Positions 10,843-13,678 of a stretch of 64,000 bases of DNA are shown one piece after another (within the stretch, counting starts at the first letter, position 1; each line of letters opens with the position of its first letter). The stretch lies in NCBI GenBank assembly GCA_038845975.1, contig JAWBQF010000010.1, forward strand, positions 12,522-76,521. The letters are read 5' to 3'. The stretch comes from Candidatus Methanomethylicia archaeon. Lineage in GTDB: Archaea > Thermoproteota > Methanomethylicia > CALHIW01. The notes below the pieces were generated by a model, which worked only from the letters and a program-made list of their open reading frames with translations, was not told where the DNA came from and did no database searches. The position numbers and the translations under genes are program-made.

Positions 10843-12729
10843 TTGAACATTGATGTATTGATCATAACTGAAAAACCATCAGTTGCAAGAGTATTTGCTG
10901 AAATACTCTCTAAGAGTAAATATCGAATTATGTATAGTCATAACATTGAATACTATGTTTTTAATTTAAATAGTGAAGTATGGGCTTCAATAGGTCTTAA
11001 AGGACATATTTTAAACTACGATTTTCCAAGTAAGTTTAATAAATGGACAGAAGTAAATCCACGTGATCTATTCTTCATAGACCCACTGCACGTCATCGAG
11101 AAAGGATGCTATAGATATGTTGAAGTCCTAAAAGATATTGGTAGAAACATACGTTACGCTCTACTAGCTCTTGATGCTGATTCTGAAGGGGAAAGTATAG
11201 CGTTTGAAGTTCTTGAAATATTGAAGCAAATCAATAAGTACTTTGAAGCTAAAAGATTATGGTTTTCAGCAGTTACAGAAAGGGATATTTTGCATGCATT
11301 AAACAATCCTCAAGAGCCTAATAGACTTCTAGCTGAGAAATGCTTTACAAGAATGATTATTGACTTAACAATAGGATCAGCATTTACAAGACTTCTTACA
11401 TTAAGCGTTAGAAAAACACTTCGTAACGCTCTTCCTAAAGGACATTTTCTAAGCTTTGGACCATGTCAAACGCCTACATTATGGTTTGTAGTTCAAAGGG
11501 AAATTCAAAGAGAGAAATTTAAAGCTAGAAAGTTCTATAGGATTACATGTACGCTTAAAGCTAATGGATTAGTATTTGAAGCTGAACATTATAAAGGAAA
11601 AATAGATAGTAAAGAGGAAGCTGAGAAAATATATAGTAAAATTAAGAATGCATTGAAAGCCTATACTAGAAGCTTTAAATCAAACATAAAAACTAAGAAT
11701 CCTCCAACACCATTAAACACCATAGAGTTTGAAAGTAGAGTAAGTAAATTTCTAAACATTAGATCTAAAACAGCCCTAGACATAGCAGAGAAACTCTACC
11801 AGTATGGATATATTAGCTATCCTAGAACAGAAACCGAAATATATGGACCAACAATAAACTTAAAAGAAATCGTTCAAATGCTTTCAAAAAATATAAACTA
11901 CAGTAAGTATGCTGAAAACCTAATTCTTAAAGGATTTAAGCCTACGAGAGGGGGGAGAGATGATAAAGCCCATCCGCCAATACATCCAACAAGAATAGCT
12001 TATGAACAAGTTATTACTGAAGAATTTTCAAGAAATGCTTGGAGAATATATGACTTCATAGCTAGACATTTCCTAGCAACACTAAGCAAACCAGCTTTAA
12101 TTGAATCTCAACGTTTAGAGCTGGAAATTGAAGAGGAGAAATTTATAGCTGAAGGATTAAAAATTATTGAGGAAAACTATCTCGAAATATACTTCTACGA
12201 GAAAATCAGTGAGAAAAAAATACCAAAACTAAACACTGGAGAGGAAGTTGAAGTATTGAAAATAGAATTGAAAGAAGGAGAAACATCACCACCACCATAT
12301 CTCTCAGAGGCAGAACTGATAAAGCTAATGGAAGCTAAAGGAATTGGAACTGATGCAACAATTCAAGACCACATATATACAAACATTAAGAGAGGATACT
12401 TCTACATTGAAAATAAACGATGTATACCAACACCTTTAGGCATACAGTTAATAAAGGCATTAGACAGCATAATACCTGAAGCCATTAGACCGGAAGTAAG
12501 AGCCTTTATTGAAACACAGATATTACAAGTTGCAAAGGGAATTAAGACAAGAAGCGAAGTAGTGGAGTTTGCTAGAAAAACATTTCTAAACTACTATGAT
12601 AGACTTGAAAAGAACATAAGTGAAATATCGAAAGCTCTAGCTCCACTAGTAAGGAAAAGCATACTTCTTACAAATATTAAGAGGAAAACTAGAAAATTTA
12701 AACGGGCCCGAGGGGATTTGAACCCCTGA
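10843..12729 (+). CDS. topA: DNA topoisomerase IA (archaeal topo III-like)
   Basis: TEKPSVA TOPRIM, DADSEGE, SFGPCQTPTL, catalytic YISYPRT, AHPPIHPT, GIGTDAT. Confidence 0.93.
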   Translation: MNIDVLIITEKPSVARVFAEILSKSKYRIMYSHNIEYYVFNLNSEVWASIGLKGHILNYDFPSKFNKWTEVNPRDLFFIDPLHVIEKGCYRYVEVLKDIGRNIRYALLALDADSEGESIAFEVLEILKQINKYFEAKRLWFSAVTERDILHALNNPQEPNRLLAEKCFTRMIIDLTIGSAFTRLLTLSVRKTLRNALPKGHFLSFGPCQTPTLWFVVQREIQREKFKARKFYRITCTLKANGLVFEAEHYKGKIDSKEEAEKIYSKIKNALKAYTRSFKSNIKTKNPPTPLNTIEFESRVSKFLNIRSKTALDIAEKLYQYGYISYPRTETEIYGPTINLKEIVQMLSKNINYSKYAENLILKGFKPTRGGRDDKAHPPIHPTRIAYEQVITEEFSRNAWRIYDFIARHFLATLSKPALIESQRLELEIEEEKFIAEGLKIIEENYLEIYFYEKISEKKIPKLNTGEEVEVLKIELKEGETSPPPYLSEAELIKLMEAKGIGTDATIQDHIYTNIKRGYFYIENKRCIPTPLGIQLIKALDSIIPEAIRPEVRAFIETQILQVAKGIKTRSEVVEFARKTFLNYYDRLEKNISEISKALAPLVRKSILLTNIKRKTRKFKRARGDLNP

Positions 12730-12798
12730 CCACCGGCTTTCTTCCTCATCCGCTAGCCAACCTGAGGCCGGCGCGCTTCCATACTACGCTACGGGCCC
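12703..12798 (-). tRNA. Intron-containing tRNA with Arg-type body and apparent CAG anticodon (identity unresolved)
   Basis: GGGCCCG acceptor stem, D-stem GCGT/GCGC, anticodon stem CCGGC/GCCGG, T-arm AGGGG-TTCAAAT-CCCCT, discriminator G; 22-nt insert (12739-12760) if spliced at 37/38; anticodon at 12764-12762. Confidence 0.85.
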
Positions 12799-12886
12799 AA
12801 TATATTATCGCTTAAATACTTAAAAGCATTTAGAAAAGTTAATACATTTAGAGTTAAATTTATTAGTTCTTATATTGTGATGACTT

Positions 12887-13678
12887 ATGGAAAATATTGT
12901 TAACAGCTTAATACAGCTTGGCTTAAGTAGAGGAGAGGCTGAAACCTACCTACTAATCATTAAAGAATATAGAGTTTCTACTGATTTCTTAAAACTGAAG
13001 TTAGGGGTTAGGAGTCAGGACGTTGAGGAAATTCTAAAATTACTAACAGTAAAGGGATTTATTAAGCCAGTATCTGAACTATCTAATACCTATGAGGCTA
13101 CAGAACCTGAAACTGCTATATCAAGACTAGTATTAAATCGTATTAAAGATCTTGAAGATAAAATCAGTCAGATTAGAAATCTCGGATTGAAAATTAAGGA
13201 TGATATCCTTAAAACGTATAAGGAGGCTAAATACGGTATTAGAGCTGAACAACTTATACAACCTCTAGCCAGTCTTAGTGAAATGGAGATTCACACATTT
13301 AAAATTATTTCTGAAGCTGAAAGAAATATTGATATTTTTACTTTAACTTTTGGATGGTATGATAAAGTTCGTGAAGCATTAATCTCATGTCTTGAGAGAA
13401 GAGTTACCATTAGAGTTTTAATGAAAATAGCTGATGAAACTTCAAGAAGAATAGCTCTAGAACTTAAAGAATTAGGAGCTAGCGTTAAAATACTAGCTGA
13501 AGAATGGCATCCATTAAGAGGAACAATAGCTGACAATAAGAGAATGGTATTTTTAATATGGGCTTCTAAAGGTGAGAAACCTATATACTATTTACCACAC
13601 TACTCAACTAATGAGGGAATTCTTGAAATATTTAAAGAATTCTTTAATAAAAAGTGGAATGAAGCAAAGCCATTATAG
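12887..13678 (+). CDS. TrmB-family transcriptional regulator
   Basis: LIQLGLSRGEAETYLLI wHTH, coiled coil, PLD-like C-terminal domain (RGTIADNK). Confidence 0.85.
   Translation: MENIVNSLIQLGLSRGEAETYLLIIKEYRVSTDFLKLKLGVRSQDVEEILKLLTVKGFIKPVSELSNTYEATEPETAISRLVLNRIKDLEDKISQIRNLGLKIKDDILKTYKEAKYGIRAEQLIQPLASLSEMEIHTFKIISEAERNIDIFTLTFGWYDKVREALISCLERRVTIRVLMKIADETSRRIALELKELGASVKILAEEWHPLRGTIADNKRMVFLIWASKGEKPIYYLPHYSTNEGILEIFKEFFNKKWNEAKPL

Follow-up and report, generated by a model that had tools for sequence, protein, structure and literature searches.

We identified, in a 64,000-nt stretch of the genome of a hot-spring archaeon, Candidatus Methanomethylicia (the whole stretch analyzed, hereafter the window), what is very probably, judging from its sequence, a tRNA-Arg(CCG) gene with two 11-nt protein-spliced introns around a 3-nt exon. 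The first-pass annotation had read the gene with one intron, as a tRNA with an arginine-type body and the leucine anticodon CAG. Because two introns, one of them inside the anticodon, would both have to be excised, the apparent leucine anticodon is presumably an artefact of reading; in the two-intron reading, intron 1 begins with the A that seemed to occupy position 35. Our analysis retains from the earlier description the arginine-type body, the poor one-intron bulge-helix-bulge (BHB) motif and the unlikelihood of CUG reassignment. The one-intron premise is abandoned, and with it the explanations offered for the mismatch (a chimeric or mistranslating tRNA, anticodon editing, an unspliced tRNA-like RNA, a CCG-to-CAG error or a pseudogene), none of which is supported, as two introns give CCG without any base change.

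The locus and the tRNA body

The gene lies on the minus strand of the window, from 12798 to 12703 (96 nt), and matches Rfam RF00005 with 57.4 bits (E = 9.1e-10; gathering score, 29). The alignment covers the full model (1-71) and places a 25-nt insertion in the anticodon loop. All sequence features on which the annotation had relied are present: an acceptor stem GGGCCCG/CGGGCCC with discriminator G (G73), a D-stem GCGU/GCGC with the D-loop AGUAUGGAA, in which the A after G18 G19 is A20, an anticodon stem CCGGC/GCCGG, a 5-nt variable loop (UGGUC) and the T-arm AGGGG-UUCAAAU-CCCCU. Every stem of this class-I cloverleaf is fully paired, and between the halves of the anticodon stem lie 29 nt, 22 more than a 7-nt loop has. 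The parts of the gene and its flanks, as predicted, are the following.

12703..12798, minus strand: whole tRNA-Arg(CCG) gene, 96-nt precursor body, CCA not encoded (RF00005, cloverleaf, solver)
12764..12798, minus strand: exon 1, tRNA positions 1-34, ending in C32 U33 C34, the last being the first anticodon base (sequence, enumeration)
12753..12763, minus strand: intron 1, 11 nt, AGGUUGGCUAG, at position 34/35 within the anticodon (BHB motif)
12750..12752, minus strand: exon 2, the 3-nt micro-exon CGG (C35, G36, G37; from the one two-intron solution left by the BHB filter)
12739..12749, minus strand: intron 2, 11 nt, AUGAGGAAGAA, at the canonical position 37/38 (BHB motif after removal of intron 1)
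12703..12738, minus strand: exon 3, with A38, the 3' strand of the anticodon stem, variable loop, T-arm, 3' strand of the acceptor stem and G73 (sequence)
12815..12832, minus strand: TATA-like A/T-rich stretch, possible archaeal promoter, ~20-31 nt upstream of the mature 5' end
12680..12702, minus strand: T-rich stretch directly 3' of the discriminator, possible terminator (sequence only)

The TATA-like stretch could possibly be an archaeal promoter; in a comparison by eye, most of 15 other tRNA genes have a TTTATA/TTTAAA-like box at a similar distance.

A20 and G73 are arginine identity elements, and both recur in the genome's four other Arg genes. When predicted mature sequences are compared, that of the gene is 88 to 93% identical to those of the genome's UCG, CCU, UCU and GCG genes and 97.3% identical to that of an Arg(GCG) gene on a metagenome contig (L059), which bears out the assignment of the body to arginine (88 to 97% identity to other Arg tRNAs). 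Leucine-type features, a long variable arm and A73, have no match in the gene, with its 5-nt variable loop and discriminator G.

Could the A at 12763 simply be wrong? A single base change separates CAG from CCG, and a one-intron gene would show the odd anticodon if the assembly or the sequencing were in error or if the gene had undergone a private C-to-A mutation. We consider this explanation hardly credible. Between 12710 and 12950 there are 0 differences in two contigs, X1 record 7 and X5 record 31, whose runs belong to separate studies, and the contig of a third study (X12 record 9) spans the tRNA, covering 12550-12801 with 2 differences, of which the listed one is at 12612, outside the tRNA, and the second carries no listed position. 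Assemblies of several studies and years agree fully in the gene's sequence, and the A, for which read support had been called for, is confirmed by these independent contigs. The paralogue, the sister genome (G001) and three metagenome contigs likewise have this A after N34. It is this recurrence of the same architecture in Arg(GCG) genes of the genome and its sister genome, together with the independent contigs, that rules out an error or a private mutation for practical purposes. Moreover, a CCG at 34-36 followed by GG-UUGG... would still leave a 22-nt insert, the removal of which is no better supported.

A single BHB-supported two-intron solution

The eight single-intron registers give AGA (three times), CGA, CAA and CAG (three times) and never an arginine anticodon, just as the first-pass annotation had stated, and none of the eight passes our BHB filter (central helix of at least 3/4 pairs and outer helix of at least 2; thresholds set within this analysis). 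Removal of a 22-nt intron in the canonical 37/38 register leaves the loop CU-CAG-GA with a central helix of only 2/4 pairs. The pairing of CCUCA with UGAGG, to which the annotation had drawn attention, is real and appears in constrained folds and in folds at 70°C.

With two introns, 196 deletions leave a 7-nt loop, 101 of them with U33 and a purine at position 37. Exactly one of these 101 passes the BHB filter, and its anticodon is CCG: the layout CUC-AGGUUGGCUAG-CGG-AUGAGGAAGAA-A would be spliced to the loop CU-CCG-GA. An independent BHB-guided recursive solver, applied to the whole precursor, returned the same single solution with a spliced-form score of 20/20. When the 29-nt region was shuffled 5,000 times, 65 shuffles had any passing solution and 2 had one with an arginine anticodon. 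Two simpler approaches were rejected. A plain BHB scan of whole precursors does not discriminate by itself because chance motifs are many in GC-rich tRNA, nor does the cloverleaf fit, since dozens of anticodons reach the top score when one- and two-intron deletions are enumerated on that basis.

In the predicted BHB of intron 1, G29 G30 C31 C32 pair with GGCU (4/4), the bulges are U33 C34/A and A G/C35 (slashes mark the cut sites), and the outer pairs are C28-G36 and C27-G37; with these 2 outer pairs and no inner helix, the motif is hBH-like. The central helix of intron 2 (CUCC/GAAG) has 3/4 pairs and an outer helix of 7 pairs once intron 1 is removed, but only 2/4 pairs in the unspliced transcript. 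Its 3' end, GAAGAA/A, is that of the canonical 12-nt introns in the genome's Arg(CCU) and Arg(UCU) genes. The intron 1 BHB fold is costlier than the minimum free energy (MFE) fold, which pairs GCCGGCC with GGUUGGC instead, by ~7 kcal/mol at 37°C and ~4 kcal/mol at 70°C; in three Arg(GCG) genes of the same design, the BHB fold is likewise costlier than the MFE fold at both temperatures.

The excision of one 22-nt intron at 37/38 from a relaxed motif, yielding an arginine-type tRNA(CAG) that either inserts arginine at CUG or is charged with leucine, would use the same 3' splice site as the canonical Arg introns, a canonical register with a 7-bp outer helix and a G37 after CAG, and ARAGORN in its intron mode calls the gene Leu. 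We nevertheless regard this outcome as very unlikely. Besides the weak central helix, a tRNA with CAG loses C35, which is a major arginine identity element, and its recognition by LeuRS is improbable because it has neither a long variable arm nor A73. The assembly already has a normal class-II, A73 tRNA-Leu(CAG) gene (G000:C5:88251-88346), which makes reassignment of CUG unlikely, as the earlier description had also argued from other evidence, and arginine insertion at CUG would be costly, the codon being used 1,518 times in long open reading frames (ORFs). We did not take the ARAGORN calls (Pro(AGG) with default settings, Leu(CAA) when introns are allowed) as evidence, because its isotypes are wrong for several intron-rich genes.

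Arginine and leucine isoacceptors

A BLAST search found exactly five Arg-type bodies in the assembly, the genes for UCG, CCU and UCU, the present gene and a paralogue on contig C21. Under the two-intron reading these give GCG, CCG, UCG, CCU and UCU, i.e., all five arginine isoacceptors. Without it, the assembly has no decoder for 2,162 CGU/CGC codons (counted in 1,163 long ORFs); read with one intron, the paralogue would carry GAG. Apart from the present gene, the assembly has no CCG decoder. The gene could in principle be dispensable, CGG being rare (293 codons) and potentially readable by Arg(UCG).

All five leucine isoacceptors are present too, and their genes are class-II and long-armed with A73. 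The Leu(GAG) gene (G000:C50:7843-7953) is readable only with an intron at 34/35 (BHB, 3/4; outer helix, 6), whereas the canonical register gives GUA and a BHB of 0/4. A genome-wide regular-expression search for hairpins with Arg or Leu anticodons returned mostly AT-rich noise.

Related genes in the genome and its relatives

The same two-intron design occurs in Arg(GCG) genes of this genome (G000:C21:2801-2904), of the sister genome G001 (L030) and of metagenome contigs (L059/L060). In each case a single solution (of 205, 197 and 190) passes the filter, and its anticodon is GCG. Their intron 1 homologues are 18 to 19 nt long and have a full inner helix (GGGU/ACCU), and in an alignment intron 1 of the Arg(CCG) gene resembles a derivative of them with a deletion of 7 to 8 nt. 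Only four distinct two-intron sequences are available, and among them the one central-helix partner that varies (G or A opposite C32) has no compensatory change. An orthologue of the Arg(CCG) gene was found neither in G001, which is 62% complete, nor elsewhere, and the flanks of L059/L060 do not align with the window.

These relationships could also be read as decay: a duplicate of a two-intron Arg(GCG)-type gene that lost its inner helix and became a poorly spliced or unspliced pseudogene, with CGG left to Arg(UCG). The 97.3% identity to the L059 gene, an intron 1 that is 7 nt shorter, a BHB fold for intron 1 that is not the MFE fold, the rarity of CGG and the lack of an orthologue in G001 are all in line with this scenario. 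However, all cloverleaf stems are fully paired, the central helix of the intron 1 motif (4/4) is better than in L030 and L059 (3/4 each), and Arg(UCU) and Arg(CCU), each present in the assembly as a single copy, carry similar short, loop-closed introns. Its role as the sole CCG decoder, the TATA-like box and T-rich tail, and the identity of its sequence across assemblies of several studies and years point in the same direction, and we consider decay unlikely.

One-intron tRNA-Arg(CCG) genes of three other Methanomethylicia genomes (G039, G040 and G016) offer a further comparison. Like the gene in the window, they have an Arg-type body, G73 and the loop CU-CCG-G, but their bodies are only ~83% identical to its predicted mature sequence. 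They carry a 13-nt canonical intron at 37/38 with a purine-rich 3' end (GAAGAG/A or GGAGAA/A) but, in contrast to our gene, no intron at 34/35.

A scan of 401 Thermoproteota genomes with the pattern GGCCTNAGG..GCTANCGG gave 21 matches in 19 genomes, and a reversed-pattern control had a comparable hit frequency. None of the 18 matches that fall outside G000 and G001 lies in a tRNA (ARAGORN found 0 genes in the 18 loci, and a regular-expression frame check found no tRNA in the 10 loci checked). One of two pattern matches in genome contigs, L058 in an Oligoflexus metagenome-assembled genome (MAG), is not a tRNA either. The pattern is narrow, and other 34/35 introns would therefore escape it.

Proposed splicing pathway

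We infer the transcription of the gene, both excisions and their order, and the aminoacylation of the product; of 21 listed sequencing runs, none is recorded as RNA. In the primary transcript, the 3' part of intron 1 (GGCU) would pair with G29-C32 to form a 4-bp BHB helix, placing both intron 1 cut sites in 3-nt bulges. The splicing endonuclease would cut both sites and a ligase would join C34 to C35, upon which the anticodon stem and the canonical 37/38 motif (CUCC/GAAG) could form and the endonuclease could remove intron 2. The expected product is a 74-nt tRNA with the loop CU-CCG-GA, A20 and G73 that would be charged with arginine and read CGG.

The genome encodes two paralogues of the splicing endonuclease EndA (PF01974), an ORF of 183 amino acids on contig C1 (match at G000:C1:60193-60450) and one of 180 amino acids on contig C30 (match at G000:C30:24213-24473). 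The best matches of one are crenarchaeal catalytic subunits (3p1z_B; E = 4.9e-51), and the other is divergent. Non-canonical introns are described as substrates of the heterotetrameric EndA type (PMC5829648), and two paralogues, one of them close to crenarchaeal catalytic chains, would fit this type. An ordered removal has a precedent in archaeal tRNA introns that are described as sometimes lying so close that the second BHB forms only after the first intron is removed (PMC8450103).

Relation to known archaeal tRNA genes

Archaeal tRNA genes with several introns are already known as a kind. Pre-tRNAs of Thermoproteales (Pyrobaculum, Thermofilum and Caldivirga) are described as having protein-spliced BHB introns, like those predicted here, with up to three per gene at canonical (37/38) and non-canonical positions and with related intron sequences across different tRNA genes (PMC4090602, PMC4033280, PMC8450103). 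The gene in the window belongs to another lineage, Methanomethylicia, and its predicted non-canonical intron interrupts the anticodon triplet itself (34/35), with just 3 nt between it and the canonical intron. Among the non-canonical positions that a review enumerates (3/4, 20/21, 22/23, 25/26, 29/30, 30/31, 45/46, 53/54, 56/57, 59/60 "etc."), 34/35 is not named (PMC4090602). A full-text literature search with interrupted-anticodon phrases returned nothing relevant, and a search joining tRNA introns with Methanomethylicia or Verstraetearchaeota had no paper on both topics among the matches listed.

A case from Staphylothermus followed the same bookkeeping logic as ours: a missing isoacceptor and an odd extra Leu call exposed a non-canonical gene, the "Leu(CAA)" being described as half of a split tRNA-Lys(CUU) (PMC3218864). 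That gene is split and trans-spliced, whereas ours is contiguous and has two predicted cis introns.

Implications

The finding matters for annotation, as tools that allow only one intron in the anticodon loop mislabel such genes. In the ARAGORN output, the Arg(GCG) paralogue appears as Val(GAC), and a Gly(CCC) gene as Arg(CCG). In MAGs, such miscalls can pass for codon reassignment, chimeric tRNAs or missing essential isoacceptors.

We tentatively hypothesize, as a possibility clearly less likely than not, that a family of short related introns with RGCUAN 3' ends has spread into the anticodon triplets of several tRNA genes in this little-sampled Methanomethylicia lineage. Arg(CCG), Arg(GCG) and Leu(GAG) would be affected at 34/35, Pro(UGG) at 35/36 and Val(GAC) at 36/37. 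Sought among class relatives, an odd Pro gene (C57) had no match in the other 61 genomes. If such a spread took place, the genomic "anticodon" of each of these genes would be cryptic, and the splicing of both Arg genes would have to run in two steps of obligatory order, across a 3-nt exon that is unusually small. In a bolder version, the shared 3' site may allow an occasional one-step removal of all 22 nt, and the resulting minor CAG-bearing Arg-type tRNA would be a regulated or stress-linked source of mistranslation.

In summary, this case would extend multi-intron, anticodon-interrupting tRNA genes to Methanomethylicia, and its two predicted 11-nt introns around a 3-nt exon would provide a compact natural substrate for tests of ordered splicing by endonuclease and ligase.

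Gene and surrounding sequence

The Rfam tRNA model matches the gene from end to end (57.4 bits, E-value of 9.1e-10); the anticodon loop carries an insertion of 25 nt. Direct reading of the sequence bore out every detail of the cloverleaf described in the first-pass annotation, and the two strands of the anticodon stem are separated by 29 bases.

Candidate tRNA gene and its parts, as read from the sequence
Window 12798 to 12703, minus strand: tRNA gene (Rfam tRNA model)
GGGCCCG/CGGGCCC: acceptor stem, discriminator G
GCGU-AGUAUGGAA-GCGC: D-arm
CCGGC/GCCGG: anticodon stem
UGGUC: variable loop
AGGGG-UUCAAAU-CCCCU: T-arm

A type IA topoisomerase ORF on the opposite strand (628 amino acids, 10843-12729, plus; Pfam Topoisom_bac 4.4e-111 and Toprim) overlaps the 3' end of the gene by 27 nt (window 12703-12729), and the ORF that follows it (12887-13678) encodes a TrmB-type regulator domain.

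The source genome is a draft of 2.77 Mb (33.7% GC, 76 contigs, 93% complete), in which the window occupies positions 12522-76521 of contig C10. Two runs belonging to separate studies (X1 and X5) gave contigs that show no differences across window 12710-12950, and a contig from a third (X12), covering 12550-12801, has 2 differences, of which the one listed, at 12612, is outside the tRNA. The agreement of these independent assemblies excludes the assembly error at 12763 that had been considered earlier; the DNA sequence is genuine.

Two predicted introns instead of one

Deletion of a 22-nt block yields, as previously noted, AGA, CGA, CAA or CAG in the 8 registers and nothing else; in the canonical 37/38 register the loop becomes CU-CAG-GA and 2 of 4 central pairs form, and the CCUCA/UGAGG pairing is present. 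ARAGORN's default setting made the gene Pro(AGG), and its intron mode gave Leu(CAA) with an intron of 22 nt; neither assignment is credible. A scan of the genome for a T-arm plus acceptor pairing revealed 4 further genes with the same body.

Further genes with the Arg-type body
C3: Arg(UCG), no introns
C30: Arg(CCU), one canonical 12-nt intron ending GAAGAA before A
C50: Arg(UCU), one canonical 12-nt intron ending GAAGAA before A
C21:2801-2904: Arg(GCG) under the two-intron reading, 37-nt anticodon region

The anticodon region is CUG-AGGGUUUUGACCUGGCUAA-CGG-AUGAGGAAGAA-A in the C21 gene and CUC-AGGUUGGCUAG-CGG-AUGAGGAAGAA-A in the candidate. Removing two introns from each, at 34/35 (intron 1) and at the canonical 37/38 (intron 2), leaves CU-GCG-GA and CU-CCG-GA, both Arg anticodon loops, and the 3' end of intron 2 is identical to that of the other Arg introns of the genome. 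Read in this way, the A formerly taken as anticodon base 35 is the predicted first base of intron 1, and C35-G36-G37 is a predicted 3-nt exon. The Arg-type body stands, and the apparent Leu anticodon most likely results from reading the insert as a single intron. We consider it very probable that the gene encodes tRNA-Arg(CCG) with predicted introns at 34/35 and 37/38.

We enumerated all two-intron deletions leaving a 7-nt loop, kept those with U33 and a purine at 37, and required for both introns a bulge-helix-bulge (BHB) motif with a central helix of at least 3 and an outer helix of at least 2 pairs. The candidate has 196 such deletions, 101 with U33 and a purine at 37, and a single one passes the filter, giving CCG. 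One of 205 passes in the C21 gene, one of 197 in its counterpart from the sister species and one of 190 in metagenome contig L059, GCG every time; no single-intron register passes in the candidate or the C21 gene. CCG was also the sole solution of a separate recursive solver run over the whole candidate precursor (the solver succeeded for 28 of 36 precursors, the 8 failures being class-II or otherwise unusual genes). Among 5,000 shuffles of the 29-nt region, 65 had any passing solution and 2 had an Arg anticodon.

BLAST searches with the Arg genes found exactly 5 Arg-type bodies in the genome. The two-intron reading makes these GCG, CCG, UCG, CCU and UCU, which is the usual archaeal Arg set. 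The one-intron reading would leave CGU and CGC (1886 and 276 occurrences in 1163 long ORFs) without any decoder in the assembly. The genome has 5 class-II Leu genes with A73 (UAA, CAA, UAG, CAG and GAG). ARAGORN recovered only 25 tRNA genes, against 29 with Rfam; in intron mode, ARAGORN reports the Arg(GCG) gene (C21:2800-2905) as 'Val(gac)' and a Gly(CCC) gene with a 19-nt anticodon-stem intron (C33:11934-12025) as 'Arg(ccg)'.

Predicted splicing motifs and enzymes

In the candidate, G29 G30 C31 C32, which precede the 5' bulge of intron 1, pair at 4 of 4 positions with GGCU, which precedes the 3' bulge. One bulge consists of U33 C34 with the following A and the other of A G with the following C35; the outer helix is made of C28-G36 and C27-G37. 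The C21 gene has the full motif, completed by an inner helix (GGGU/ACCU) that the candidate does not have. Intron 2 has 2 of 4 central pairs in the unspliced RNA versus 3 of 4 (CUCC/GAAG, adjoining the 5-bp anticodon stem) once intron 1 is out, a motif equal in quality to that of the genome's sole Arg(CCU) gene. This difference favors an order in which intron 1 would be excised first and intron 2 second.

In each of the four two-intron genes, the BHB fold of intron 1 is less stable than the minimum-energy fold by 4 to 8 kcal/mol, and covariation is absent among them. At minimum energy, the candidate precursor forms a 7-bp hairpin (tRNA index 27-43; window 12756-12772, minus strand) in which GGUUGGC from intron 1 binds GCCGGCC, made up of G26, the 5' anticodon-stem strand and C32. 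Because GGCC is palindromic, the intron 1 segment can also take the place of that 5' stem strand; with this substitution, the outer helix of intron 2 is 6 in the unspliced RNA.

The genome encodes two tRNA-intron endonuclease paralogues (183 and 180 amino acids). For one of them, the best matches among solved structures are chains 3p1z_B and 3ajv_B (E-value of about 1e-50), which we take to be the catalytic subunit of a crenarchaeal heterotetramer, and the second is divergent. On sequence grounds, the enzyme would be of the heterotetrameric type. Non-canonical introns are cleaved only by the heterotetrameric and epsilon types (PMC5829648).

Relatives and possible origin

The sister species, with the only other species genome in the family and order (62% complete), shares both introns in its Arg(GCG) gene, with a different inner-hairpin loop and A for G opposite C32. 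Three metagenome contigs carry the two-intron design, one of them identical to the C21 gene. In the other two (L059/L060), the body is 97.3% identical to the predicted mature form of the candidate, but position 34 is G and intron 1 is 18 nt long; their flanks do not align with the window. This near-identical body with G34 and a longer intron 1 suggests that the candidate descended recently from a GCG-type gene with two introns, through G34 to C and a 7-nt deletion in the inner hairpin. In three other members of the class (Methanomethylicia), Arg(CCG) is interrupted only by a 13-nt intron at the canonical site. Across 401 Thermoproteota genomes, a narrow pattern for the 34/35 intron occurred within tRNA genes only in the source and sister genomes, and 18 other matches were outside tRNAs. 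No orthologue of the candidate was found outside its own species, which, together with the missing inner helix, the energy of the intron 1 fold and the absent covariation, would fit a decaying duplicate; CGG codons are rare (293), and Arg(UCG) could decode them. We nevertheless regard such decay as very unlikely and favor tRNA-Arg(CCG).

Predicted introns within the anticodon triplet

Other tRNA genes, all outside the window, with predicted introns in the anticodon triplet
C50:7843-7953, minus strand: Leu(GAG), 13-nt intron at 34/35
C10:262-388: Pro(UGG), 35/36 intron placed by the solver (4 of 4 pairs in helix GGCU/AGCU), with additional introns
C50:12043-12142: Val(GAC), solver introns at about 24/25 and 36/37

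The Leu(GAG) loop region, CUG-UAUGAUGUGCUAC-AGGC, has a BHB in the 34/35 register with 3 of 4 central pairs and an outer helix of 6, and the canonical register gives GUA on a Leu body with 0 of 4 pairs. This loop can be read sensibly only with a 34/35 intron and is an independent control for the 34/35 reading. The gene has a second, 12-nt insertion within the T-loop (UUCAAA-AGAUUUCUGAAA-AUCCCAC); it was overlooked by ARAGORN, the Rfam search and a regular expression, and only BLAST with a Leu 5' half recovered it.

A Pro-type gene (C57:547-656, minus strand) encodes the anticodon loop CU-AGG-GA. To our knowledge, such an A34 is not expected in archaea. No other intron placement yields a good cloverleaf, and the gene has no match in 61 other genomes of the class. 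Pro(GGG), Pro(CGG) and two Pro(UGG) genes are already present in the assembly, so this short contig could derive from a different organism (genome contamination, 4.3%).

Some introns are so close together that one must go before the second motif forms, as the tRNAscan-SE 2.0 paper describes (PMC8450103), and Chan et al. used the same bookkeeping logic to resolve both an erroneous Leu(CAA) call and the apparent lack of Lys(CUU) (PMC3218864). The anticodon-triplet introns have similar 3' ends (GGCUAG, GGCUAA, UGCUAC and AGCUAG), and their predicted placements at 34/35 in Leu(GAG), 35/36 in Pro(UGG) and 36/37 in Val(GAC) suggest that interrupting the anticodon triplet is a habit of this genome.
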